Assembly: GCA_963820525.1 (NCBI GenBank)
Contig: CAWGAA010000003.1
Span: 192,001-256,000, forward strand
Source of the DNA: an uncultured Spirochaetota bacterium
GTDB lineage: Bacteria; Spirochaetota; Spirochaetia; SZUA-6; Fen-1364
Direction of reading: 5' to 3'
DNA: 64,000 nucleotides
The notes under the pieces were generated by a model. That model ran no database searches and was not told the origin of the DNA. It saw nothing but the letters and a program-made list of their open reading frames with translations. Of the stretch, positions 31,567 to 47,358 are shown piece after piece. Within the stretch, counting starts at the first letter, position 1, and each line of letters begins with the position of its first letter. The translations under genes were made by a program, and so were the position numbers.

Positions 31567-34500
31567 TCACCGATTTCCACTATTGCCCGGAAGGGCGTTC
31601 AACTCATCCATCGTGATCTGAGTGATCCCCTGCCTGTAGTAGTTCACGCCGTTGTTGAAGAAGACACTGCTAAGCACCCCATATGCACCAGCGCCATCCT
31701 CTTTAATCCCGTACTCGATGTTATCCGTAAACGTGGCGCCGATTAGGTTCATCGTCCCCCCCAAGAGGTGGATGCCGATGAGATCCTCACTCAGCACTGC
31801 CTGGCTGAGGCTCAAGCTCCCTGCGGGAAGGAGGATAAGGCCCCGCTCCGCGCACTGTAGCTCCAATCCGCTGCCGCTCGCAGTGCCTCCCACCGTAATC
31901 CCGCGCCACAATAGCCCGCTGTAGATCGCATCGAAGACCGAGCGCGTCCCGGAGTTCGCCACGGTAAGCAGCGCGCCCGAGTCAACGACAATCCCCCCAT
32001 CCATCACGTCGTCTTCTCCGAAGATGGCGTTGACCGTTCCATCTACCGAGTCCAGAGTTAGGCTCAAGCTGGATGGGACTTCGACAATTCCCGTTAAGGT
32101 CACGGGGCCTGTCCAGTACTCACTTGTGAAGAGCGTACCGGCCGTTGTGTTATGAACCTCTACAGGGATGCTTGCAACCTGGCTCTTACCCCAAAAATCG
32201 CTTACTGTGAGCTTCAGCGTATAGCTGGTCTGCTGATTCCTTCCAAATTGGAAGTACGCCGCTGTGTTCCCCGCATCCGGCCATGCAAAGACCACTTTCT
32301 GTTGATCCGAGAAGTCGATCGGGCTTCCTCCGCCCAGATTCCAGGAGTACGTAATGGGGTAATCTCGCTCTTCGTCTTCCACTCGAACAAGTTTCTCCAG
32401 GGTGAGCGGCGCCCCTGGCGTTGTCATAACGCTTGCTCCACCGCCCGCTATCGAAACCGCCGGCGCCGCGTTGAAGCGGAGCACATCTCCCATCGTCGTT
32501 TTATTGCCGTAGAGATCGGTCCCAATTACGCTAAAGTCCGCCGTACCGGGCCCCGAAACCGTCACGGTGCCATAGGAGTTGATTGATGTATCCGACGAGC
32601 CCGGCGGCCGTCCATTTTTCGTCACGGGCTGTGAGCCGTACAGGGCGCTGTTCACGGAGAGCTCGAATGCAGTGCCCTCCTTCCCCGAGGTGAACGTAAG
32701 CATCTCCGCCTGTTCGTTGGTAAGCGCATTCCCGTCTCTTTCTTTTAGAACTGTATTGGAATAGATCAATCCGAGCACCGGAGCCGTCCAATTGATATCC
32801 ACCTGGTACTCGCTTGCTATCGCGGGGCCCCAGTCCTCAGTGCCGTTCCGGAACCGAACGAAGGCGTAGTAGCTCCTCTGTTGGGATGCGCGCTCTATCC
32901 CCACACCCGCCGTACTCCAATCGACGGCCGGAAGATTGTCGGCTATGGAAACGGGGAGGGTTGCCATGCTCCAATCAGGATCAAGGTCCATTGATAGCAT
33001 AGTCTGGTAGGCTAGCAGGCCGCTTTGGCTGTCCTTGGCCGCTAGCGTCCACCCATCAATTACTCCCGTATTTCCCGAAGCGTTGCTATATCTGCTGGCA
33101 CGAGATATGGAGATGCCGCTTGCCGGAGTTTCGTCGACCAGAATCGTCTCACTGGGCGTTGTAACGCTCCAGATTCCCGTTCTGCTCTGCGCCTTCACCT
33201 CGAGGGCAAGCGTCTGTCCGTCCACCGGGATCATATGCGCATCCGATATCATCGCCGTATAAGGAGCTTTCCACTCGGTGTTCGCCATTCCCCTGTAGTC
33301 CGAGGTCCAGTCCTGGAGAATCTGCCCCGTGAAGGCATCAGTAAGCTTCCACTGGATCTGCTGCACACTTCCTGGACCCTTCACCGGAGTGTAATTAACC
33401 GCTTTCACATTGAAGTGGTCGCTAAAGTACTTGGTGTATTTGAAATCGGCCAGCACAGGTACAGTGGTGCAGATCGTCATGGAAACAGTTTTTGATCCGC
33501 CCAACCCCAAAGCCGTTACTGGCCATACGGTCGCGTGAATCTCATCTCCTTCTTTGTAGCCCAACTCCTTCCAACTGCCGCTCCAAAGCTTCTGCGTTTG
33601 CACGATCGGAGTCTTGTCCCCGATTATGAGCTGGTAGTTCTGAATGAAGTCCGAATCGCTATCGACTTGCCAACTGAAGCTCACCGAGTTTTCGCTTAAG
33701 TTCATCTGCAGAGCAGCGATCGCGGGGAAGCTACCTTCGGCCCTGAAGGCGGGACTGTAGAGCACGCTCTCGTTTCCCGCATTGTCCACCGCATGGCCCT
33801 TGAGCATCCAGATCGAGCCTACCTGAGCCGTCTGTGAGCCGGACCCCAGAGAAAGAGCCGGCGAATATTGTAGCTGTGCGGCCGATATGTTGGAGCCTTC
33901 AACCGGGTCTCCCACCGCGAGGAAACCTGTAGCATTATTCCAGGTCCCTGCCTGAACGTCAAAACCCTTGAGCCCGGATTCGTAGTCACCTGAATCTACC
34001 TGGCCGAGGACCGATGGCGGACTTCCAAGCGCTGTAAGCTGTACGTGGCCGGCGATCGCCGTTTTTACGCCGCCGCTCGACGTAACGGCGATCACCGTAT
34101 TGACCCACGGCGCTTTGCTGTCAAGAACGACCCCCCTGCTGTAGCCCACACTCTCAAGGCCCACCCCGTTCACCGCCTTGACCGCGAAGAAAAGCACTGT
34201 GCCGTCGGAATATGTCCCCGAATCGGACCCGTACCTCAACTGCGAGAAATCCAATCCGCTTACCGAGGTTCCTCCGCTCACCTGAGTCCAGGGGTTCGTT
34301 GTAAGCTCGCCTGTATTCGTGTATGCCTTCCAGTAATACTTGACGGTGCCGCTTTCAGGGTCCGGCGATGTGAAGTTCCAGTTGAAACTCAAAGTCTGGT
34401 ATCGGCTGCCCAGCGGATCGCCCTGCACACCGCTTGGCTTGTAGCGAACCGCCTCCGCCATCGGCATCACAAACGGAGCCGGCGGCGCGGTGCCGTCTAC

Positions 34501-37500
34501 AATCATGATCCCGCTTTCCTGCGTTGTGGTAAGCCCGGCCCCATTTTCAACGGATACTTCCACTACAATCCGGTCCGCGGTCGCAACACCCCCCGTCCCG
34601 CTCAAGTCGATATCAAGCCGCTGCCCTGCTGCCTCGATGGACGCGAGGTTATCCTGCCTCACAAGCGCCCACGCCCAGCTCCCATCGGGCTGAATAACCG
34701 AACGCTTCACCAACACGGTGCCTCCGGTGGCCCCGGATTGCGTATCCGACCCCGTGAATGTTAGCCACACGTCATTCGGTGCCACATAGACGGGAACGGC
34801 GGTGAGCGCCACCACAGGCGGTGTCGTGTCGACCACACTCCCCGCGCTTGTCACATCCGCAAGCACATTGCCGTCGGCGTCGAAGGCCTCCACCTCCACC
34901 GCAACGGATTCCCCGTCGCTGAGCGTGACGCTCGAGGCCTGCGTCGTAACATCCAGGTCCAGTATGGTTGATGTCGTTTGCTGTTGGACGCTCCAATCCC
35001 GAAGGGCCGCCCTGTCGCCTAGTCGAATCCAACGGTTGGCATAGCTTGCTGGACTTCCCCCTGCGTACCCCCAGCGTGCCACTATCTTGCCGGTTCCCGC
35101 GTTGAAGTTCTGATTGTTGACGAAAAGCCCGGTGCCGGACACCGTCATCACGATCGGCGATGCGCTCACTGAGATTCCCGAGCCGCTTGTCGCAGTGAAT
35201 ACAACACTAAACGTTCCCGCAGATGGGATGACGATATCGCTTCCCGGACGGTACCCCTGGCTTTCACCCGCTCCCGTGGCACCGAGGCTCTGATACGACC
35301 AGCTCCATTGCACTGTTCCGCACTGGTCCGTTGCCGCTGTATGTACCTGGATGCTCTGCCCTACGATAAACTCGCTTCCCACAATCGAGGCCGTGACCCC
35401 CTGCGGGCCGATTCCATCCTTGATAAACACCGGGCTTGAAAGCACCGGACCCACAACGTCGTTTGCGTTTCTCACCTGAAGCTGCACTCTGTAACACTGC
35501 CCATCACTGCTTATGCGGCTTCGAACCTCCTCGAACGTCTGGCCCCACTGGCTCCACTCATCGCCATTCTCCTGGGCAGTCCCGTTTTGTTCGACAAGCT
35601 GTACATTCCACCGCGCGTCTTTCACCGGGTTTGCGCCGCTTGTATCCGTTGGAACATAGCTCACCGAAAGATCCGATGCCTGCCGAATCCAATTGCGACC
35701 CGAGGCGTTTCTCATTCCGCCTACCGACAACGCCACGTCCGGCCCAGCCGCCGAATACCTGACGGCCCAAGCGCTGCTGCCGGAGGCCGGCCATTCCGAA
35801 CTGTTCCCGGCCTTATCCGTCAGCTTTATGTGCAATTTTCGAACGCCGTCTTGCGCCCCCGCGAATGTCAGAGAGTAGGTGTCTGTGGAATGGGGAACAT
35901 CGAAAAGCGCTGTTGGAACGGGCGAAACAACCGCCGCCGTCCATACCGACGTCGTTGGCGCCTGACCTTCGGTCCACTGGTATGCCGCTTCCGCAAGACC
36001 TGCCCCACCGTTCTCGTTCACCTCGATGACCGCCGTGATGGCTCCGTCCGCTCCGACATACGTGTTTCCTTCGGGGTCCGTCTCTGAAGTCACAAAATGG
36101 AAAGAGTTGGCCACCAGAACCGGCGGGGTTGTGTCCAATACCTTTGGTATCGCAGATGTGTTGAATTGATTTCCTGCATTGTCCTCCGCGATTACCTGAA
36201 TTGAATACTGCTCATCTGCAAGCGGAAGAGGGAAGTTGAAATTTCCCGCTGAATCGAAACTCACTGACTGGGGATCAACAAACGATTGGGTGCTGCCCCC
36301 CACAATTGGAGCCCAGCTTACCTTGACGCTCCTTAGCCCACTCCCTTCGGTATTATCACTGGCCGTCCCGGAGACCGTCTTTGAGTTCGTGGCAACGTTC
36401 GCGCTTGCCATCATCCCGGAAAAGGTTATCTGCGGTGGATCGACATCCCAATTGATGTTTCCGAAGGACAGCTGCTTGTAAGCATTAAGATTACTTGGGA
36501 CAGAAAAATCGGCAGGCTCTGTATCGATCCATTCGTCAAGCTTGATGAGAATCTTATTTGACTGGAGGACACCCTTGAGCTGGCTCAGTGAGTTGGTATT
36601 CGAGTCCAACTTACACATCTTCCATAAGTTATAGTCGCAAATAAGGTCATAAATTGGATCCGTTTCTTGACCGGATACGTTAATCGACGGTGTAATCGTC
36701 TGCTTTTCATAGGAGGTGGATGTGCTAAACTCACCATGGCCGTTATCAATCCCAAGCTCGAATCTGTAGTGGATGGTGTTGCCGTCCTCCGTTTGGATAA
36801 GAATATTGTGTTGGGTTAGCCTCGCTTTGGCTCCAAGCCACTGTGTTCCCAGGGCCAATTGCGGCAATGATGAGTATGGCACCTGGTATGATAGTGCCGC
36901 TGGTGCCTCGATCCGGATGTTTTGAGTGATGTTCACGTTTTCGGTATGGCCTGGGTCCGCCGTAATTTCGATGTATGGTTCATAATAGACTGTTTTCCCC
37001 GCTATCAAGTCGCTGCTATAATAGGGCGTCGCTCCTTGTACTTTTACACAGTCACTGTTTGGAGAGAGTTCAATCCCAGTTGCGTTGGTTACCTCAGTTG
37101 CCGGATTGGCGATGCAAGTGCCATCCGTTCCTATTCCCCACTTCAAGCCCCGTGTTCCGTTGCCTATTGTCTGATTCTGCCAGAATATTCCTGAAAGCGC
37201 TCCATCAAATGGCTGACGCGCCGGCGCCATGAAAGGCCCTGCAGAGCCCCACTGGGGTTTGAAGATCCGTACCGTCTTGGAAATCGAAGGCTTCCCAGTC
37301 TCGTCTTTAGCCTGAACGATCAGTTTACGGCTGTTTTCCGCGCCCCAGGCGAAAACGTAGCTTGCGCAACTGCTCACCAGATTAAGCTCTGTTGAAGTAT
37401 TTGCCGTCAAATCCGTGATCTCGATTTTGTAGCTCGGAAGTGTAGACAGTGTAGAATCGAGCTCCGAGTCTTGGTATCTAATGATTAAGGTGTCGGAGGC

Positions 37501-39618
37501 GAGTACTGAAGGAACTTTATCAGCCAGTAAACCCCAAAACCCGTCATCTTTGAGACTCCAAGCGTCGGAATCACCATACTTGCGTTCGAGCATCGAAAGA
37601 CTGACGGGGCTAGGTTGGGCCCGATGGAGAGAAAAGGTTATGGTTCCGGTGCTGAACATCCCCGAGGCATCCGTAAGTTTGTATTTGAGCGTATAGGGTC
37701 CGTCAGTAAAAGAATGTCCATTAGCGTCAGTGAAAGGAATCGCAGCAGTGTACTTCCCGCTGCTGTCGACTGCGAAATCTATTGCTGCGCTGCTATAGGA
37801 TACTGTCGCGTCATTGCGCTTGAGAGAGGTGACTTCTACTTTTTGGGGAGGCGCGTAGCAGCCAGCGCTGTAGGTTTTAGTAATGAGGTCCTGGTTAAAT
37901 GATAAAATTAAATGATCTGCGTTGATTGGTTTGGTGGGATCGAGTTCCATGTCTGCATTATTAGTAAATAAGTCAGTATATCTTTTATTCTGCGCGCCAA
38001 GTGAAATTGCTACATTATTTCCTGTGATCGTGTATATAGATGCTGACGTGTTGCCTGCATTATCGGTGGCTGTGATTATATATTCATAAGCTCCGGTAAT
38101 GGGTGTAAAGCTGGTGGCATCACCTGTGATGTCATTGCCGCTCTTTGTATATTTATAACTAATTGATTTGAAGCCACTAGTGGTATCTGTCGAAGAGAAC
38201 CCCACCGACCCATGAACATAATAGCTGCCGCGCGGTATCCATCCGCTTGGTGGAGTTATGATGGGCGAATATCGATCGATTTTTATATTCTCATTAGGTG
38301 ATTCAGGAAGTATTTTTTCATTGCCAACAGCATCTTCTGCCTTGAATCGAATACTGTATTTACCATCTAAAAGCACAGTATCAAGCCACGTAGAAGGACG
38401 TGTTCCTCCTCCAAGCGAGATCCAGTCTTTTTGATTCAGGTGTCCCTCCCGAGATACCTCAAGTCCAGCACCTAACGCGTCTGTAGCGGAGATTGCAAGA
38501 GGGTGATAAGCTTCAAATCCGAACCAAGCCGAATTATACCAGCCCGTTGTGCTGTCAGGTGGTGGTATTATAATATCAGGAGCGCTAGCCAGTATTTTTC
38601 GATATACTGTTATATTATTGTCCGCTTGATTACCAGCAGCGTCTTTCACTTTGAAGGTGAGGGTATATACTCCAGAATTGCCTGCTGAAAAAGACGCAGT
38701 TGCAGTTGTATTATTTGCCGGATTGCCATCATTTAGAGTTAGGTCTTTAAATGTGCGAGAAGCATTATCCTTATCGACATACGTTTCATCATATGTGAAA
38801 CAGGATACAATAAACCCACTTCCATCAGAGTTGTCCGTAGCTTGCAGCGTTATTTGATCCGATGATTTCCCAGGTGGAAGCCGACCATATTCGTCCGGTG
38901 CCGGCGAAGAGATAATTGAAAGAGATGGCGGTACTTTGTCGATAGTGGTTACTCTATAGTCTGTTGGATCACTGATATTTCCAACTTTATCTATTGCGCG
39001 AAACCAAACTGTGGTCTTATTCTCGGTTACAGTGCAACTATCGCCAGGGGACCAATTCGTATCACCTTGGATCTTATGTTCATACCCATACAAGCCCGAT
39101 CCAGTGTCTGTGCTTATTCCAGTGTTCTTTACTACCACCTTATCATTAGTCCAGGAGTCTGGGGATATTGTTATATCTTCAAGGAGCGGCGCTGTTGGTT
39201 TGGTTGTGTCGCTTATGAAAGTAAAAGATTCATGAATAATGACATATGTATTGAGCCCCATATGTGCTATTATTGAAATAACAAGGTTTACGTTACCAAA
39301 AACAGTAAAAGGCACATCTACAGTATTCGCGTCATCGTCCACATAAGTAGGGGGATGCAGTGTCCCATCGGGCCTGAAGACATAACAACTATACCATGGT
39401 GTATCCAAGCCAGGGTCTTCGTCTTTCTGAAAGCGAAATCCAAGCGATGAGCCCTTATAATAGTAAGTGTTTGCGTCGATTGCAGAAAGATTATCGCTGA
39501 GCGCAATGAGCCTTACGTAATAAAGATAACTTGAAGGGGAGCCATTATAGATCATTGTATCAGCAAAACTATATGACACTGAGAAAAGTACTACCAAGAT
39601 TACCAAAACTTTCTTCAT
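31567..39618 (-). CDS. Giant secreted Ig-like repeat protein (2683 aa) with a C-terminal beta-helix-like region
   Basis: Signal peptide; recurring A.D.AGN and D.T.P Ig-fold motifs; WRGI..G and N...GI repeats at the C-terminus. Confidence 0.8.
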   Translation of the reverse strand: MKKVLVILVVLFSVSYSFADTMIYNGSPSSYLYYVRLIALSDNLSAIDANTYYYKGSSLGFRFQKDEDPGLDTPWYSCYVFRPDGTLHPPTYVDDDANTVDVPFTVFGNVNLVISIIAHMGLNTYVIIHESFTFISDTTKPTAPLLEDITISPDSWTNDKVVVKNTGISTDTGSGLYGYEHKIQGDTNWSPGDSCTVTENKTTVWFRAIDKVGNISDPTDYRVTTIDKVPPSLSIISSPAPDEYGRLPPGKSSDQITLQATDNSDGSGFIVSCFTYDETYVDKDNASRTFKDLTLNDGNPANNTTATASFSAGNSGVYTLTFKVKDAAGNQADNNITVYRKILASAPDIIIPPPDSTTGWYNSAWFGFEAYHPLAISATDALGAGLEVSREGHLNQKDWISLGGGTRPSTWLDTVLLDGKYSIRFKAEDAVGNEKILPESPNENIKIDRYSPIITPPSGWIPRGSYYVHGSVGFSSTDTTSGFKSISYKYTKSGNDITGDATSFTPITGAYEYIITATDNAGNTSASIYTITGNNVAISLGAQNKRYTDLFTNNADMELDPTKPINADHLILSFNQDLITKTYSAGCYAPPQKVEVTSLKRNDATVSYSSAAIDFAVDSSGKYTAAIPFTDANGHSFTDGPYTLKYKLTDASGMFSTGTITFSLHRAQPSPVSLSMLERKYGDSDAWSLKDDGFWGLLADKVPSVLASDTLIIRYQDSELDSTLSTLPSYKIEITDLTANTSTELNLVSSCASYVFAWGAENSRKLIVQAKDETGKPSISKTVRIFKPQWGSAGPFMAPARQPFDGALSGIFWQNQTIGNGTRGLKWGIGTDGTCIANPATEVTNATGIELSPNSDCVKVQGATPYYSSDLIAGKTVYYEPYIEITADPGHTENVNITQNIRIEAPAALSYQVPYSSLPQLALGTQWLGAKARLTQHNILIQTEDGNTIHYRFELGIDNGHGEFSTSTSYEKQTITPSINVSGQETDPIYDLICDYNLWKMCKLDSNTNSLSQLKGVLQSNKILIKLDEWIDTEPADFSVPSNLNAYKQLSFGNINWDVDPPQITFSGMMASANVATNSKTVSGTASDNTEGSGLRSVKVSWAPIVGGSTQSFVDPQSVSFDSAGNFNFPLPLADEQYSIQVIAEDNAGNQFNTSAIPKVLDTTPPVLVANSFHFVTSETDPEGNTYVGADGAITAVIEVNENGGAGLAEAAYQWTEGQAPTTSVWTAAVVSPVPTALFDVPHSTDTYSLTFAGAQDGVRKLHIKLTDKAGNSSEWPASGSSAWAVRYSAAGPDVALSVGGMRNASGRNWIRQASDLSVSYVPTDTSGANPVKDARWNVQLVEQNGTAQENGDEWSQWGQTFEEVRSRISSDGQCYRVQLQVRNANDVVGPVLSSPVFIKDGIGPQGVTASIVGSEFIVGQSIQVHTAATDQCGTVQWSWSYQSLGATGAGESQGYRPGSDIVIPSAGTFSVVFTATSGSGISVSASPIVMTVSGTGLFVNNQNFNAGTGKIVARWGYAGGSPASYANRWIRLGDRAALRDWSVQQQTTSTILDLDVTTQASSVTLSDGESVAVEVEAFDADGNVLADVTSAGSVVDTTPPVVALTAVPVYVAPNDVWLTFTGSDTQSGATGGTVLVKRSVIQPDGSWAWALVRQDNLASIEAAGQRLDIDLSGTGGVATADRIVVEVSVENGAGLTTTQESGIMIVDGTAPPAPFVMPMAEAVRYKPSGVQGDPLGSRYQTLSFNWNFTSPDPESGTVKYYWKAYTNTGELTTNPWTQVSGGTSVSGLDFSQLRYGSDSGTYSDGTVLFFAVKAVNGVGLESVGYSRGVVLDSKAPWVNTVIAVTSSGGVKTAIAGHVQLTALGSPPSVLGQVDSGDYESGLKGFDVQAGTWNNATGFLAVGDPVEGSNISAAQLQYSPALSLGSGSQTAQVGSIWMLKGHAVDNAGNESVLYSPAFRAEGSFPAIAALQMNLSENSVSFSWQVDSDSDFIQNYQLIIGDKTPIVQTQKLWSGSWKELGYKEGDEIHATVWPVTALGLGGSKTVSMTICTTVPVLADFKYTKYFSDHFNVKAVNYTPVKGPGSVQQIQWKLTDAFTGQILQDWTSDYRGMANTEWKAPYTAMISDAHMIPVDGQTLALEVKAQSRTGIWSVTTPSETILVDETPASGISISRASRYSNASGNTGVIDGWTLAAKDSQSGLLAYQTMLSMDLDPDWSMATLPVSIADNLPAVDWSTAGVGIERASQQRSYYAFVRFRNGTEDWGPAIASEYQVDINWTAPVLGLIYSNTVLKERDGNALTNEQAEMLTFTSGKEGTAFELSVNSALYGSQPVTKNGRPPGSSDTSINSYGTVTVSGPGTADFSVIGTDLYGNKTTMGDVLRFNAAPAVSIAGGGASVMTTPGAPLTLEKLVRVEDEERDYPITYSWNLGGGSPIDFSDQQKVVFAWPDAGNTAAYFQFGRNQQTSYTLKLTVSDFWGKSQVASIPVEVHNTTAGTLFTSEYWTGPVTLTGIVEVPSSLSLTLDSVDGTVNAIFGEDDVMDGGIVVDSGALLTVANSGTRSVFDAIYSGLLWRGITVGGTASGSGLELQCAERGLILLPAGSLSLSQAVLSEDLIGIHLLGGTMNLIGATFTDNIEYGIKEDGAGAYGVLSSVFFNNGVNYYRQGITQITMDELNALPGNSGNR

Positions 39619-39688
39619 AACAAGTCAGCTCCCTTCTAAGCTTTTAATTGCGGTCCAACTATCCCAGACCGGATTCCCTCATTCTTCT

Positions 39689-41393
39689 CTATGGCTTAAC
39701 GCCCGCCACAAGATTTATTCCTGAACGTGTCTCACCATTGGACAACGAAAAGTTTGGCACTGCTGGAGGATTTGCCCCAGAACCTCCGTAATAGCCAATG
39801 TAATCTCCGGATGAGAATTGGTTATCGTCATCCATATCAACCCAAACCCACAGGTAGAAAGTTCCAGGGATAATGCCAGAAACTGAATAGCTCTGGGTTG
39901 TGCCCGTTCCTGACCAATCTTGTAATGGGGAGTATTGCACAAGGCCAAAGTTGCTATTATAGAGCGTGCTTATGCTTGAAACGATCACAGCCCATGTTTT
40001 GCCGTTAGCATTCCCTGCTGCAATTGTGACCGTCCCATTCACCGATGCGTTCGCTGCGGGGTATGTGCTTAAAGTGATATTAATGTTTGAAAGCGTTCCT
40101 GAAGAGGGGACAACAAGGTTTGGCGCTGAAGGCATCAACACGCCGCTGACACCATACCATCCCAAATAATCCCCCTGTGTGGGCGACAAGCTCGCATCCA
40201 TATCAATAAAGACGGACATAAAGCATGTCCCTGCAGGCACGCTAGAGACTGTATAAGTGGCGGTTGTGCCTGAGCTTCCAAGCAAAGTTCGTATATGCTA
40301 TTACATATGGATTGGTTGGAGAGCTTATTATAATAGAAACGTTTTTCCCGTTTGCATTTGCTGATGGAATTGTCAAAGTTCCCGTGACGCTGGCTGCTGT
40401 ATAGGTGGATAATGCTATATTTTGTATTACCGTTCCCGTGTAAGAAACAGAGACATCCGATGCCGTTCCATAGTAATCGCCGTTGGTAAGCAAGCCATTG
40501 CCATCCATATCAATATGGACTGAAATATCATATATGCCTTCTGGGATATCAGTAGCAGTATATGTGGCTGTCGAATTATTTATCCAGGATAGAAGCACGG
40601 AATAAGAGGTGCCACTTTCAGCTCGGAGAAATGCCGTCCCCCCGCCATATGCGCTCGCGTCTGGTGCCGGAAGAGTCACGGTTCCGGAGACAATTGCTTT
40701 CGGAAGCAGATTGGCCGTCACTTGGTACGTCTGAGTAGTGGTATCACCCGCAGTGACTGTGTAGATCACAGGTACACCATCAGTGAAGGTCTGTGCAACT
40801 CCGCTTCCAGGGTTGACTGATGCGCCGGTAATTTGTATGGATGGTTTTAATGAGATAAGACTCGTACCTGCAGCAACACCGACCGAAACAGTATGATTAT
40901 TATTATCTACCGTTCCAATGAAATCATGCGATAGTGTTGGATTATCAGCCTTCTTGAAAGCAAAGCTAATGATGTTCTTTTCATTTGCTCCAGGCCGTGT
41001 GACAACTATAGTATATGTTATAACTGTTGTTCCATCTTCAGCATTTACTGCTATCGAGATTGTCGTGCTAGAGCCAATAGGTAAGGCAATAGGATTGCAT
41101 GCAGATCCGGATGTAATTGAAATCCCATTAACTTGGATTGTAGCTTTTGAGCTTGTGGCTGTGGGCGTCACTGTTATTGAGAAATCGGCGTAAGATACTG
41201 TCGCATTATAGCTCGTCGTAGCCGAGGCGAAGCTTGGTGTCAATGAGCCCGCAGAAATCTCAATGCCGGAGAGTGTCGCATCACTAGACTTGCTATTTTG
41301 TTGTTGGTTACCACTTGGCATTGAACAAGATAATAATACTATCAATAAAAATATCGAGATGATATAATATATAGATAGTTTATAAAATAACAT
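39689..41393 (-). CDS. Surface lipoprotein with cadherin-like beta-sandwich and three DMD-x-x-GDY modules; +1 frameshift near 40283
   Basis: Lipobox LLSC; SSDATLS...LTPSF...TSY; DMDGNG..GDY, DMDASL..GDY, DMDDDN..GDY. ORFs 40242-41393 and 39689-40285 join if one base is removed. Confidence 0.75.
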
Positions 41394-41628
41394 TTTAGTC
41401 CTCTCTTTTTTTAAAAGAAATCGTTCTTAAGACTGAGTAACGCGTTTATAACATGGAGTACTTGAGAATGCAAGGAATATTTTTCGAAGGTATCACTATG
41501 ATACCTTCGAGTAGGACCTCACTGAACACAACTCATTTAAAGACCGCATTATATTTGTCAGTTTCGCTGGGGCTGTAAGGAATTTTATTTGCCTTCGGTG
41601 GCCACTTATTAAGCGACAACGCGCGCCC

Positions 41629-41975
41629 ACTATGCCCACTGCTGACCTTCTGTCCACCCATCCCCCTCGCCTCGCGGCAGGGGTAGCTCATCGAGCAGAT
41701 GGACAGATCTCACAGGGTAATGCGCACCCACCTGCCCGCTTATGTCCGCTGCATCTACTTTCATGAGTTCCGTACAGGTATTGGACTTTGAGTTTAATAG
41801 CCCTCTTGTCCCTTATAGCTGCCTCATGCAGTTTCTGTTCGTCAGGCCAGTGCTTTGCCTGCGGCTTCTTGGGATTCCGCCTCGCGACGGACAACCTTGC
41901 CGCCCGGCTAACTGTTCCCCTGTCAGGCTAGTAGAGGACTTTCGCCTCCAAGTGAGTGCGCCCTGCCGGGCGCAC
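41629..41975 (-). mobile_element. Group IIC intron 5' fragment (domains I to partial III; no ORF, DV or DVI)
   Basis: Starts GTGCGCCCGGCAGGGCGCA. Colinear with the 5' region of the neighbouring intron (GACGAACAGAAACTG; GTCAGCA...GGGCATAGT), then breaks off. Confidence 0.8.
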
Positions 41976-42069
41976 CACTAAATCGACATAGGTAGACCCT
42001 CACGGGTTTTCCCTGTCACACCACCGTACATGCGGGTCTCGCATACGGCGGTTCGGTGGGATTGAGCGC

Positions 42070-43073
42070 TCAGGAAACAAGCGCCGGGAGTCCGAGGGAG
42101 TCAAAGAAAGCATTCGGTAGCGCACGGGTCAGAGCGGGGCTGTTGCTCAGCCTCCATGGTCCGTGCGCACTCCCTACCGTCTCTGCGGCAAGGTCTACAC
42201 TGATCCCCCGGTTCCTTAGCTCTTTGAAGCGGATCTTTCCACGCCTCCACTGCTTCCAGAGGAAGCAGCGCAGCCGCCTTCGGGTCCACCCGTCCAACGT
42301 GCTGAGTATGCTGGGGGTCTCGCAGAATCCGAAGTAGCCCCGCCATCCGATCATGTACCTGCGAAGCTCTCCTATCATCCGCTCGATACTGATTCCGCGT
42401 GTTCGCCGCGTCAGCTCACGAATTCGTTCCTTGAAGCGGAGGATGGATTGGGGCGCCATACGCCTCCTGATCACCTCCCCGCTGGTGAAGCTGAATCCGA
42501 GAAACTTCCGATTCCTTGGCCGCGCCACCGCGCTCTTTGATTCGTTCACCTTGAGCTTGAGCCTTCGAGTGAGAAAGCGCTTCACGCCTTCCATCACCCG
42601 TTGACCCGCTCGCTCGCTCTTCACGTAGATATTGCAATCATCCGCGTAGCGAACGAAACGGTGTCTGCGTTGCTCCAGCTCTCGGTCTAGCTCGTCGAGC
42701 AGCAGGTTGGAAAGAAGGGGGGAGAGGGGTCCGCCTTGCGGCGTGCCTTCCCCCGTCGGTCCCACTAGTCCGTTCTCCATCACTCCAGAGTTCAGAAACC
42801 CTCGGATCAGTTTCAGCATACGCTTGTCACTGATCCTTTTGGCTACGCGACTCATCAACACGTCGTGGTTCACACGGTCGAAGAACTTCTCCAAGTCAAT
42901 GTCCACGACCCAGTCGTAGCCTTGCTGGATGTACTCTTGCGCCTTCACCACTGCCTGGTGTGCCGATCGCCCAGGCCTGAATCCGAAGCTGAACTCGCTG
43001 AACGTGGGGTCCCACCGCTTTTGCAGCACCTGCAGCACCGCCTGTTGCACGAATCGGTCTCCCACCGTCGGGA
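42070..43073 (-). pseudogene. ltrA: Group II intron reverse transcriptase/maturase, 3' part
   Basis: PTVGDRFVQQA, DIDLEKFFDRV, GTPQGGPLSPLL, RYADD, GWRGYF; no endonuclease domain. Confidence 0.93.
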
Positions 43074-43385
43074 CGGTCAACGCTAAACGCACTCTTGCAC
43101 AACGCCGATTTGGGATCGGCCAAAGTCACCCACCCCTTCCATCCGCTCCGTCACCAAAGCTTTAAAATCCTCAAGACACGGAAGGTCGCAGGAATGGATA
43201 CCCTGATCCTTCAAGGAACTGAAAATGGTACATTCGCCGTTCCTCGGGAATGGACCGATCAAGCAGACCCATGCCTATTCGATTCACGCAAACGAGCTGT
43301 CCCTATCTTCTCCTTCTCCTGTCTCCGAGAGTTGCTCGACCTGGTCGATCGAATTGGGAACGGAAAAAATTGCGAAAGGTATTGA
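43074..43385 (+). CDS. Small element protein (DUF5372-like, VTHPFHPL), with no strong start in the integrated state
   Basis: VTHPFHPL...VPREWTD. The frame is open back to the left junction; only TTG codons lie upstream of the motif. Confidence 0.7.
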   Translation, partial: RSTLNALLHNADLGSAKVTHPFHPLRHQSFKILKTRKVAGMDTLILQGTENGTFAVPREWTDQADPCLFDSRKRAVPIFSFSCLRELLDLVDRIGNGKNCERY

Positions 43386-43436
43386 CAAATGCATAAAGCC
43401 TTAGTAGAATCTGTACAGTTTATTAACTGTACAGAT
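43382..43436 (+). promoter_or_regulatory. Sigma70 promoter with overlapping palindromic operator
   Basis: TTGACA (43382)-17 nt-TAGAAT (43405); 12-bp IR ATCTGTACAGTT-tatt-AACTGTACAGAT at 43409-43436. Confidence 0.8.
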
Positions 43437-43776
43437 GAACCTACAGGAAAAATCGACAACCTTCTTACGAAGAAGGCGAACCTCCCTCCTCACCCAGGTA
43501 GCCGCTATCGACCCCCACATCCTCCGTGGCTCTCTCATCGAACGCTACATCCGTTGTGGAAAACCAGAATGCAAGTGCGCACGGGGCTCTGGTCATGGCC
43601 CCAAGTACTACCTGTCCGTCAGTTATCCCGATCAGAAACCCCAGCAAGACTACGTTCCTCAGCAATTCCAGAAACTCGTTGTACAGTCTCTCGCCAACTA
43701 CCAAAAACTGAAAACCCGCATAGAAACCATTTGCGACATCAATCGGGAACTCCTGCGAAGGAGGGAAGAGTCCTAA
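43435..43776 (+). CDS. Small Cys/His protein (DUF6788-like), possibly zinc-binding
   Basis: LRGSL.ERY.RCGKPECKCARG.GHGP.YYLS pattern seen in mobile-element accessory proteins. Confidence 0.75.
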   Translation: MNLQEKSTTFLRRRRTSLLTQVAAIDPHILRGSLIERYIRCGKPECKCARGSGHGPKYYLSVSYPDQKPQQDYVPQQFQKLVVQSLANYQKLKTRIETICDINRELLRRREES

Positions 43777-44341
43777 ACCACCCCCGACTTAAGTCGGGGG
43801 GTTTGCGCTTGTCGGCTAAAGCCGACTGGGGCCGACATCACGGTTCTACTTTGAAGTCGGCATCTTGGTCCCGCTCTGTGTCCTGCTGATTCTCGATGTA
43901 GCGGGCGATCATCTCTTCGGTCACGTTCCCTGTGCTCGCCACGAAATACCCGCGGGCCCAAAGATGCCTGCCCCAGAATGTTTTGTTCAACCCTTTGTTT
44001 TCCATGAGCAGCTTCCGTGATGTCAGCCCCTTCATGCGCTGCACGAGCCTGGATACCGATAGAGTCGGCGGCACGCTCAGCAGCAGATGCACGTGATCGC
44101 GGCTGATGTTCCCTTTCACGATCTCTACGTCCAGGCTCGCGCAAATCATTCGTATCAGATCTCTTACGCGGGTTCCTATCTCTTTCCCCAACACTGGCTT
44201 GCGGTACTTGGTGATCCACACTATATGATACTTCAAATCATAGACGCAGTGCGACGCTTTTCGATACTGCTTCATCGTACCGCAAGCCTACTAAAGTCTT
44301 CGTCTAAAGACGAGGGGGTTTCTCCCCGTAGGAGACTCTAA
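43773..44341 (-). mobile_element. IS200/IS605-family element (tnpA only)
   Basis: Subterminal hairpins at 43781-43800, 43811-43826 and 44300-44313; CTAA at both junctions. Confidence 0.88.
43838..44275 (-). CDS. tnpA: IS200-family Y1 (HUH) transposase
   Basis: YHIVWITKYRK, DHVHLL, WARGYF, YIENQ. Confidence 0.95.
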   Translation of the reverse strand: MKQYRKASHCVYDLKYHIVWITKYRKPVLGKEIGTRVRDLIRMICASLDVEIVKGNISRDHVHLLLSVPPTLSVSRLVQRMKGLTSRKLLMENKGLNKTFWGRHLWARGYFVASTGNVTEEMIARYIENQQDTERDQDADFKVEP

Positions 44342-44471
44342 CAGATGGATGCCTCGCTCTCCAGCCAGATTCCCGTCGATATCGAGGCCGTCGCAACAAT
44401 CCTGGCCAATATGCTCCATGGTCATTTGGCTACGAGCAAAGGTTGCACGATGGATCTTTGGGAGGATATCG

Positions 44472-46541
44472 ATGATGACGAAAATCACTGCGACCCATAC
44501 AGACCGAATGGCGTATGTCTACCTGCGCCAATCGACCATGGGGCAGGTCCTCCACCATCAGGAGAGTACCGAAAGGCAATATGCTCTGAAGAACCGCGCC
44601 TTGCAATGCGGTTGGACGACAGACAAAATCAGAGTCTTGGATGGCGACCTGGGCATCTCGGGCGCCCACATGACCAATCGGGAGGACTTCAAGTCCTTGG
44701 TCGCGGACGTCTCCCTGAACAAGGTGGGGGCGATCTTCGCCCTAGAAGCCTCACGACTGTCCCGTTCCTCCAACGATTGGAATCGCCTCTTCGAGTTGTG
44801 TTCACTCACCGATACTCTGATAATCGACGAGGACGGATGTTACAACCCCACCGATTTCAACGACCAGCTGCTGCTGGGCTTGAAGGGGATGATGTCGCAA
44901 GCCGAATTGCACTTCATCCGCGCCCGCCTCCAAGGGGGAAAACTGAACAAGGCCAAGCGAGGGGCGCTTCATTTCCCCCTACCCGTCGGATACTGCTACG
45001 ATGAGGAAGGCACGATCGTTCTGGACTCCGACGAGGAGGTCCGCAGTGTCGTGAAGCTTATGTTTGATACATTCCAGCAGACCGGTAGCGGCTACGCGGT
45101 TGTCAAAAAGTTCACCCATCTGAACCTGAAGTTTCCCAAACGTGCCTACGGAGGAGTCTGGAAGGGCAAGCTCATCTGGGGACGACTGACATACGAGCGA
45201 GTGCACGGTATCCTGAAGAACCCTTCCTATGCGGGCGTGTACGTGTACGGACGCTACAAATACAGAAAAATCCTATCGACAGACGGCGGCATTTGCTCCA
45301 AAATAGAGTCCGTGCCGATGTCCCGCTGGCAGGTGACCATCAAGGACCATCATGAGGGCTATATCAGTTGGGATCAATTCCTTCACAACAACATGATCCT
45401 GCAGCAGAACCAGACCAACGGGATTGAAACGATGCTCCCTTCTGCTGCCAGAGAGGGAATCGCCCTTCTTCAAGGCATGCTCATTTGCGGAATCTGCGGG
45501 CGACGCCTGACCGTCCGCTACCAAGGCAACGGGGGGCTCTATCCCATCTACGAATGTAACTGGCGCAGACGGGAAGGGCTGGCGGATAAATCCTGCATGA
45601 TGTTCCGCTGCGATATCGCCGATGAGACAATAAGCGTACGCCTCCTCGAAGTATTGAAGCCGGAGCAGTTTGAGCTCGCGCTGAAGGCGATGGAAGAGGT
45701 CGAGAATCGGAACAAGGCGATTGATGCGCAATGGCGTATGAGAGTTCAAAGGGCCGACTACGAAGCGTCCCTGGCCCAAAGGCGATATGAAGAAGTCGAT
45801 CCGTCCAATCGCCTGGTCGCATCCACGTTGGAGAAACGCTGGAATGAGGCTCTCATAAACCTCGAGCAGGTCAAGCAGCAGCATCGGGAGTTCAGCCAAA
45901 AAGAGCAGATGGTAATGACTTCTGAGCAACGGCAGAAGGTATTCGCTCTGGCGCTGGATCTGCCACGTCTTTGGAAGGCGCCAACGACCCAGGCAAAGGA
46001 TCGAAAGCGCATCCTCAGGTTGCTTATCAAGGACATCACTGTTCAAAAGCTTGCCGAACCGAAAAAGCTCATCTTGCACGTGCGCTGGCAGGGGGGTGCC
46101 ACGCAAGACATCTCATGCGATTTGCCTCCAAAGGCGTGTGACAAAATCCGGTATGGGCAGGAGATTGTCCAGAAGGTCAAAGATCTCGCGAAAAATATGC
46201 GAGATGATCAAATAGCCGAGGTATTCAATAAAGAGGGACTGATCAGCTCGAAAGGAGGACAGTTCACGGAATCTAAGATACGTAATATCCGGAGTACCCA
46301 TGCTATTCCCTCGCCCAAACTGAAACATCCGGAAGAACTCACTATCAAAGAAGTCGCCGACAAGTTTAAGGTTAGTACGCAGGTCGTCTATTATTGGATA
46401 GAACGAGGATATGTGACAGCTCGAAAAACGAAGTATGGGTTACCGTTCTGGATCACACTTAAAAACCAAGATGAAGAAATACTCCGAAGACGTGTCGCTG
46501 AGTCATATAAACTCAACGAGGTGAAAACTTCACATTCCTAA
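44472..46541 (+). CDS. Large serine recombinase (resolvase, recombinase, zinc ribbon, coiled coil, C-terminal HTH)
   Basis: AYVYLRQST, D.GISG, EASRLSR, ILKNPSYAG, LLQGMLICGICG, LTIKEVADKFKVSTQVVYYWIERG; GGAGG SD before ATG 44472. Confidence 0.95.
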   Translation: MMTKITATHTDRMAYVYLRQSTMGQVLHHQESTERQYALKNRALQCGWTTDKIRVLDGDLGISGAHMTNREDFKSLVADVSLNKVGAIFALEASRLSRSSNDWNRLFELCSLTDTLIIDEDGCYNPTDFNDQLLLGLKGMMSQAELHFIRARLQGGKLNKAKRGALHFPLPVGYCYDEEGTIVLDSDEEVRSVVKLMFDTFQQTGSGYAVVKKFTHLNLKFPKRAYGGVWKGKLIWGRLTYERVHGILKNPSYAGVYVYGRYKYRKILSTDGGICSKIESVPMSRWQVTIKDHHEGYISWDQFLHNNMILQQNQTNGIETMLPSAAREGIALLQGMLICGICGRRLTVRYQGNGGLYPIYECNWRRREGLADKSCMMFRCDIADETISVRLLEVLKPEQFELALKAMEEVENRNKAIDAQWRMRVQRADYEASLAQRRYEEVDPSNRLVASTLEKRWNEALINLEQVKQQHREFSQKEQMVMTSEQRQKVFALALDLPRLWKAPTTQAKDRKRILRLLIKDITVQKLAEPKKLILHVRWQGGATQDISCDLPPKACDKIRYGQEIVQKVKDLAKNMRDDQIAEVFNKEGLISSKGGQFTESKIRNIRSTHAIPSPKLKHPEELTIKEVADKFKVSTQVVYYWIERGYVTARKTKYGLPFWITLKNQDEEILRRRVAESYKLNEVKTSHS

Positions 46542-46570
46542 AGGCTGATATAGGAGGTGCAGTATGAATA

Positions 46571-46948
46571 CACCGTCGGGATGCCGAGTTTCCTCGTGCC
46601 TCCTCCCGCCTTGGGTATCTCCACTCGTCTCACGGGCTGGGGCTTGTACGCGCCCGCAATAAGCTGCTCCTTCAGTCGCGGCCAGTTCTCCCGCAGGAAC
46701 TCAGGTAGTTCCTTGACGCTCATGCCGTCAATCCCTGCCGCCCCTGCGTTGGCTTTCACGCGTCTCAGTGCTTCCTTCAGGTTCTCCTTCTCGCATGCCT
46801 CCTCGATCAGCTTGTCCGTGTTCGCTTGGCTTTCCGCGCTGAGTTTCGCCGTCGTGGATTCGATCCCTTTCTTGGGCGTCACAGGGGCTTCACCCCTTGC
46901 CTCGCCCTCGAAGGCCAGTTCATGCTGGATTTTCTGTCGCTTGTCCAC
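46571..46948 (-). pseudogene. ltrA: Group II intron reverse transcriptase/maturase, 5' part
   Basis: NL..A.RRVKAN.GAAGIDG, YKPQPVRRVEIPKAGGGTRKLGIPTV. Confidence 0.93.
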
Positions 46949-47358
46949 TCCGAGTCGCTCCCCCTACTCGCCTTCCCGCCGTTCGGGCCTTCGGGTCAAC
47001 AACCCTACTATGCCCTTTGCTGACTTCTGACAGGCGATCAGAGACTCTCGCGAATCCCTCAGTCCCGATTCCAGGACACCTGCCAGATCTCCTGGGGTAA
47101 GCTCACCCGCCTTCGGCGCACAACCGCTGGATTTACAACCCGAGCCCTTGATGGATATGGGCTTGTCGGTCATTTGCCCGCTCGCCCGACTCGGTATGCC
47201 TCCTATCCAGTTTCTGTTCGTCGGCTCGCGCCTTTGCTCTACGCTTCTTTCGGACACGCTCTCGCGAGATAGGTGCCCTTGCGCTTCGCTACGCCTTCAC
47301 CTCCATCAGGTTGGCGAGGGGACTTCCACCCCAAAGCTGGTGAACATGCCCAGCACAC

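Follow-up and report, generated by a model that had tools for sequence, protein, structure and literature searches.

Several mobile elements driven by a large serine recombinase (LSR) are known in which excision and re-insertion proceed through a circle. In Tn4451 and Tn4453 (recombinase TnpX) and in Tn5397 (TndX), the circle junction creates a promoter for the recombinase, which works without a cofactor. In serine integrase systems, integration is unidirectional and is reversed with the help of a directionality factor, and the outer (zinc-domain) motif of attB is placed about 5 bp nearer to the site centre than that of attP. The closest named element is NGRIS-4, said to have been described from Sinorhizobium fredii NGR234 by Perret et al. 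in 1997. Here, we analyse an LSR element that splits the reverse transcriptase (RT) gene of a group II intron in an uncultured Spirochaetota bacterium, contained in a 64,000-nucleotide stretch of DNA (the window; contig CAWGAA010000003.1 of assembly GCA_963820525.1, forward-strand positions 192,001 to 256,000, renumbered from 1). Based on the evidence from this locus and its relatives, the element is understood, with a probability of roughly 80%, as an LSR-driven cut-out/paste-in mobile element specialised on group II intron RT genes.

The 3,320-bp NGR234 element of our survey (locus L167), which, partly from its size, we take to be NGRIS-4 (y4bA/y4bD), resembles the window element in its DUF5372 ... 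LSR layout, in its arm geometry with TGCA at +17 to +20, in a right-end DUF5372 start codon found at the same place and in frame on joining, and in its insertion at a conserved codon within an enzyme gene that belongs to a different mobile element. Its LSR is only about 40% identical to that of the window, other middle genes replace DUF6788 within its 3.32 kb, and the crossover is TT in the Lys codon of a transposase motif, K-[GA]-x-[VD]-E, whereas the window clade uses GG/CC in RT. The target transposases are presumably of the IS21 and ISNCY families. The window element thus has the layout and the end-joined start of NGRIS-4-type elements without their insertion into transposase genes of other insertion sequences. 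By its place in the LSR tree, it is an RT-targeting sister clade of the NGRIS-4-type elements and not NGRIS-4 itself.

With Tn4451, Tn4453 and Tn5397, the element would have in common LSR-driven excision to a circle and re-insertion, and a circle junction that yields an expression signal; the signal is here a translation start for a second gene, the target is codon-precise, and transfer or resistance cargo is absent. Phage serine integrases with their recombination directionality factors (RDFs), such as SprA/SprB of SPbeta and the systems of phiC31 and Bxb1, share the domain order, the fold and the central dinucleotide and a small partner at the DBD2–coiled-coil junction, which for the window element is modelled. 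The window element differs from these phage systems by the lack of phage genes, by many target alleles, by a partner gene split across the att site and by an extra C-terminal helix-turn-helix (HTH) region. Unlike a phage or prophage, it has only three genes, none of them for virion, replication or lysis.

Multi-targeting LSRs are described by Durrant et al. (PMC10083194), where one LSR cluster uses many attB alleles with a common motif around the core dinucleotide. The multi-targeting clade is marked there by DUF4368, a domain that our domain search did not find in the element LSR, and neither the main text of that paper nor the supplementary files searched contain the words "reverse transcriptase" or "maturase". 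A literature search returned no description of the element, mention of which may be present in Perret 1997, the TIGER paper (Mageeney 2020), ISfinder, the intron database or supplementary tables; papers on DUF6788 or DUF5372 were likewise not found.

Results

A frame-restoring insertion in an intron RT gene

The initial annotation of the locus had placed a direct repeat at both ends of the insert, had predicted an uninterrupted 456-aa RT upon removal of the insert and had described a reconstructed attP as symmetric about GG, with GTGC/GCAC further out. Each of these statements was borne out. The 11-bp repeat CACCGTCGGGA is present in exact copies at 43063-43073 and 46571-46581, the match ends on both sides without possible extension, and the window holds no third exact copy. 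Excision of the insert together with one repeat copy (3,508 bp) leaves an open frame of 1,371 nt on the minus strand, which encodes 456 aa before its stop codon and contains all expected RT motifs (LGIPTV at 121, DLEKFFD at 182, GTPQG at 232, YADD at 265). The rebuilt attP is symmetric around GG at 6/6 inner bases, followed by the equidistant GTGC/GCAC (k=7); an attP symmetric around a central dinucleotide common to both junctions is what a serine integrase site would have. Since the 5-Mb genome contains eight exact copies of the 11-mer, six of them away from the insertion locus, the repeat by itself is weak evidence, and the strength of the case lies in the frame restoration together with the family. 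The element is single-copy in its genome, and the split RT is the sole near-complete RT of its kind there.

The host intron has both its ribozyme domains and its RT/maturase reading frame. Rfam matches to D1-D4 were obtained at 47101-47271 and 46986-47062, and the D5/6 match (41982-42053) scored 39.5 bits, slightly below the 40-bit cut-off. The 5' end comes after a hairpin and a T-run, as in class C introns, from which we infer that the intron belongs to this class. Positions of all features are collected in Table 1.

Table 1. Features of the element and of its host intron, in window coordinates
Feature	Position	Strand	Remark
Host group II intron	41982..47358	-	Rfam matches; 1,869 nt without the element; ends read from sequence
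RT gene, C-terminal part, first residues PTVGDR...	42070..43071	-	RVT_1, GIIM; TIGR04416 positions 75-353
Left junction, with core repeat, GG crossover (43070-43071) and an element arm bearing an inner and an outer (TGCAC-type) motif	43063..43092	+	
DUF5372 gene body (Y4bD/Y4pK family)	43072..43385	+	PF17342, E 7e-19; ribosome-binding site and ATG at opposite element end
Sigma70-type promoter TTGACA-17-TAGAAT, 3' of DUF5372	43382..43410	+	11/12 positions
Palindrome immediately past the -10 box; candidate operator	43410..43435	.	
DUF6788 gene, 113 aa; candidate autorepressor	43435..43776	+	PF20586, E 3e-26
IS200-type passenger (tnpA 43838-44275)	43773..44341	-	PF01797, NF033573; outside the element family
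LSR, 689 aa: Ser21, recombinase domain, Zn ribbon and coiled coil, extra C-terminal HTH region	44472..46541	+	
Shine-Dalgarno (46552-46557) and ATG (46564-46566)	46552..46566	+	Become the DUF5372 start when the ends join
Right junction, with element arm, GG crossover (46578-46579) and core repeat	46557..46581	+	
RT gene, N-terminal part, last residues ...RKLGI	46580..46948	-	TIGR04416 positions 1-72

One target codon across diverse RTs

The family survey comprised 167 loci (80 genome, 80 metagenome, 2 viral and 4 plasmid loci, and the window), with the loci on genome contigs found by an alignment scan, a single-protein scan of contigs having given none. A recognisable end was present in 141 loci and both ends in 88, after exclusion of a wrong left-end call at L105, and grouping at 90% identity gave 62 element clusters. 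The RT motif [RK]xLGI/PTxxD[RK] (slash, junction) was found at one junction or more in 122 of the 141 loci and on both sides in 63 of the 88, while 142 of 7,454 shifted-junction controls passed (1.9%). An RT target is assigned to 57 of the 62 clusters. The RTs concerned differ widely, with a median identity of 37% and with 45 of them falling into 37 clusters at 70%, and the loci are spread over many phyla, with complete genomes carrying the element and annotated plasmids showing the identical layout. The initial annotation had named the conserved LGIPTV codons of the intron RT as attB, and the GIPT codons in RTs of group II introns are upheld as the preferred target; the flanks of homologous recombinases, which it had proposed to inspect with insertion at unrelated sites as the adverse outcome, lie for most loci in RT genes at the same codon.

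Near-identical elements are found in different RTs (L012/L015, L028/L029), and the element therefore moves between introns. A single ancient insertion inherited with the split intron, or else an assembly artefact, would agree with the many short contigs and with chimeric-looking flanks at L138 and L159. This explanation is rendered extremely improbable by the occurrence of the same element in unrelated RTs and in both orientations, by its presence in complete genomes and plasmids and by contigs from two sequencing runs (X1 and X2) that span the window's junctions.

Targets other than RT genes include a palindromic repeat resembling REP (repetitive extragenic palindromic) sequences, occupied by six copies in one genome (L070-L075), and single scattered sites elsewhere. 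The L070-L075 lineage has apparently switched its target from the RT gene to the REP-like repeat. The same element was met at both RT and non-RT sites (L012/L014/L015, L010/L064), and in view of the five of 62 clusters that lack an RT target, specificity is, as judged from the insertion sites, relaxed, a point that bears on the LSR/att pair for genome engineering envisaged in the initial annotation. These three observations could be accommodated by a serine transposase that is promiscuous, uses many targets and recognises only a loose motif, the excess of RT sites then arising from assembly bias or from selection of harmless sites. Purifying selection, however, would not focus inserts on one codon among all harmless DNA, and the 122 loci set against 1.9% expected by chance make such a transposase a highly improbable explanation.

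Among 60 relatives, for each of which four candidates were scored, 5 contained uninterrupted copies of a related intron, 13 in total and of 82-90% identity. One contig of sequencing run X4 (90% likeness) skips exactly 3,508 bp. For the joined ends, the database proteins P0148 and P0284 each start in the way that end joining predicts, and the upstream residues of P0284 agree with the right-end consensus.

Crossover and orientation

The crossover dinucleotide corresponds to bases 1-2 of the Pro codon in GI/PT, on either strand. It agrees between both ends in 83 of the 88 two-ended loci (GG/GG 66, CC/CC 9, other matched 8, mismatched 5). Elements with GG are antisense to the RT and those with CC are sense, and Ala, Ser or Thr codons at the Pro position give GC, GA or GT. 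Sense elements are scattered over several separate positions of the LSR tree (FastTree; 117 of 150 sequences, end-less ones and near-duplicates left out), which implies repeated orientation flips, presumably via the palindromic GC of Ala codons. The inner arm consensus of attP resembles the codons 3' of the crossover. When the attB arms were compared with the shifted outer motif, the sole match was C at +14.

At L138 and L159, which have the palindromic GC, both flanks are RT N-terminal halves, and in L159 it is the same half; these loci may represent an invertible element or a chimeric assembly. At the left arm of the window element (43072-43092), the minus strand holds a GTG-initiated frame that leads into the C-terminal RT part, with no clear ribosome-binding site (RBS).

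The recombinase and its companions

The element LSR has the catalytic-serine resolvase domain (PF00239, 64 bits against a cut-off of 23.3), recombinase domain and zinc ribbon (PF07508 and PF13408 above cut-off) and coiled coil (helices 397-441 and 447-478 in the model) that define a large serine recombinase, in addition to a weak MerR/HTH_17 match. Y17-R19-S21 is invariant among 50 homologous sequences, and the predicted fold matches solved serine integrases (E 2e-19). Among 8,000 scored candidates, the protein clusters that match the LSR at E 1e-50 number at least 7,182, sister clades counted in; no match was obtained at E 1e-40 in 50,697 phage records.

The genes of the insert are DUF5372, DUF6788, an IS200 tnpA and the LSR. 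The label "minimal" used in the initial annotation did not survive, given the 569-bp IS200 passenger and the two small genes DUF5372 and DUF6788 beside the LSR. Without IS200 the element measures 2,939 bp, close to the family median of 2,934 bp. IS200 sits at the DUF6788 stop codon and separates the promoter from the recombinase. Four additional copies are present elsewhere in the genome, and the five near-identical copies suggest recent IS200 activity.

A start codon probably supplied by end joining

DUF5372 appears to be assembled by joining of the element ends. A right-end start codon (ATG or GTG) lies 14 nt inside the crossover and comes in frame with DUF5372 on joining in 87 of the 88 loci; an RBS-like word accompanies it in 74. 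Stops occur in 0, 57 and 40 of the 62 clusters in the three joined frames, the DUF5372 frame being the stop-free one, and the mirror position of the left arm has a start codon in none. The right-end ATG was also considered as a restart of the C-terminal RT half and was rejected, because in sense insertions its frame does not match that of the RT.

A promoter 3' of DUF5372 (at least 9/12 positions) was recognised in 40 of the 62 clusters, with 5 expected. With this promoter downstream and the ATG at the other end, integrated DUF5372 is devoid of both. An operator-like palindrome after the -10 box was present in 47 of 50 clusters with full DUF6788 and in 0 of 12 without it (control, 9 of 62); the window's own palindrome is a variant outside the search pattern. 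Their shared loss is partly expected because palindrome and DUF6788 gene adjoin and the lineages are related. DUF6788 is a candidate autorepressor that would act at the palindrome.

The DUF5372 model shows a generic SH3/KOW-like barrel (best Z 5.9, root-mean-square deviation 2.1, 49 aligned). A search of viral structures with this fold gave no match at E 0.001, and Atlas searches with DUF5372 and DUF6788 returned only the two families themselves. The modelled LSR-DUF5372 complex scored 0.70 and the best control 0.00; of 157 solved complexes 116 reach the score mark, as do 2 of 215 mismatched pairs, counts that apply only approximately with the alignments used here. The model runs agreed in at least 84% of contacts, and the partner's confidence (pLDDT, predicted local distance difference test) was at least 73. 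On the LSR, the modelled interface involves residues 338-343, 399-421, 466-500 and 506-544, that is, zinc-domain strands and the coiled-coil base. RDFs sit at the zinc-domain/coiled-coil (DBD2–coiled-coil) junction, often adding a strand, according to PMC12286644 and PMC11795197, which also report false positives, and the modelled interface matches the RDF site given there. The model thus supports binding of DUF5372 to the LSR at the RDF position. A classical excision factor is the function we tentatively favour; a factor that licenses integration is only somewhat less probable, and a role in neither of these appears unlikely.

Neighbourhood of the intron

A few bases past the 3' end of the host intron, the 5' part of a second group II intron (Rfam D1-D4, 41590-41976) has no RT behind it and is possibly a truncated or nested intron. 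Further neighbours of the intron (31567-41393) are a gene for a repeat-rich protein of secreted type (2,683 aa) and two smaller genes that are lipoprotein-like.

Discussion

Read from the DNA, the mobile element proposed here is distinguished by fixed ends, near-symmetric attP arms, a crossover in the Pro codon, removal that restores the frame and a single site across very different RTs. In the mechanism that we propose, the LSR would join both element ends into a circle, thereby restoring the intron, and the circle would re-insert into another RT gene. The inner arm bases may mimic the P-T-V codons, and from this resemblance it would follow that conservation of the RT protein keeps the DNA target available, so that one would exist in every intron lineage. 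The central dinucleotide would determine the orientation of insertion. The internal promoter would drive DUF6788 and the recombinase, and DUF6788, acting on the palindrome, would damp it. Once a circle has formed, transcription would continue through attP, the RBS and ATG now preceding DUF5372, and the protein so made could bind the recombinase at the directionality hot spot. The element would gain a safe, repeated and mobile landing site, and the intron would lose its RT in cis.

Several points weigh against this mechanism or parts of it. The IS200 between promoter and recombinase may be polar in the window copy. In 60 of the 88 loci, an in-frame TTG precedes the part of DUF5372 that encodes the folded core, so that the integrated gene may still be weakly translated, and the complex score may reflect likeness to solved integrase-RDF complexes. 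The X4 contig may represent an allele that was never invaded. Joined attP DNA was not found by pattern in the 167 loci, the viral contigs or the joints listed for four runs, and the evidence from P0148 and P0284 is of protein only and could stem from a tandem dimer. The RT motif is missing from 19 of the 141 loci, some with short flanks or with RT variants outside the pattern. Lastly, many loci are short-read contigs of metagenome-assembled genomes in which the two flanks are possibly mis-joined.

The initial annotation had proposed a reversible switch of maturase/RT activity, and restoration of the RT frame on element removal indeed invites an interpretation as regulated gene integrity (of the skin, SPbeta or fdxN type), in which controlled excision would switch intron splicing or mobility for the benefit of host or intron. 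Long C-terminal RT flanks (n=50) are open through YADD in 35 cases, and a gene dependent on end joining could serve as a regulatory handle. Open frames are, however, predicted by recent insertion alone, and the other 15 flanks are not open, some of them owing to a second element further in; such second elements occur in several introns (L016, L058, L062, L080). Sister clades with the same att geometry hit transposases, as fits a parasite of mobile DNA. We therefore regard regulated gene integrity as improbable and retain the mobile element specialised on intron RTs.

A second LSR element at the RT F/D motif is present at L058, L062 and L080, so that three introns of one complete genome (G001) are doubly loaded, with one LSR element at GIP and another at F/D. 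The 186-bp RT segment between the paired elements appears swapped between L058 and L062, by recombination between element copies or through mis-phased assembly. The doubly loaded intron occurs twice (L062:37-7498 and L080:40-7498), with sharp intron-like boundaries at different sites, which may indicate that the intron moved in trans together with its cargo or that each copy was invaded separately. More distant DUF5372-LSR loci (L127, L128, L140) abut motifs that are presumably the transposase cores of IS3, ISL3 and ISKra4. A far-reaching and rather doubtful extension would be a large guild of LSR elements that partitions the conserved catalytic codons in genes of other mobile DNA (RT GIP, RT F/D, several transposase motifs). 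A cofactor made only from the circle would then license integration, opposite to what holds for phage RDFs; introns that bear an element may even so move in trans and take it along, and repeated copies would swap RT segments between introns.

The family is a source of many naturally occurring LSR-attP-attB sets, whose target motif can be read and whose dinucleotide varies in nature, and it constitutes a compact system for direct testing of direction control by circle-specific gene assembly. Testable roles are suggested for two domain families of so far unassigned function, that of a directionality cofactor for DUF5372 and that of a repressor for DUF6788. For the biology of group II introns, the element is proposed as a widespread, sequence-specific enemy that could help to account for the occurrence of broken copies and for the limited spread of these introns.

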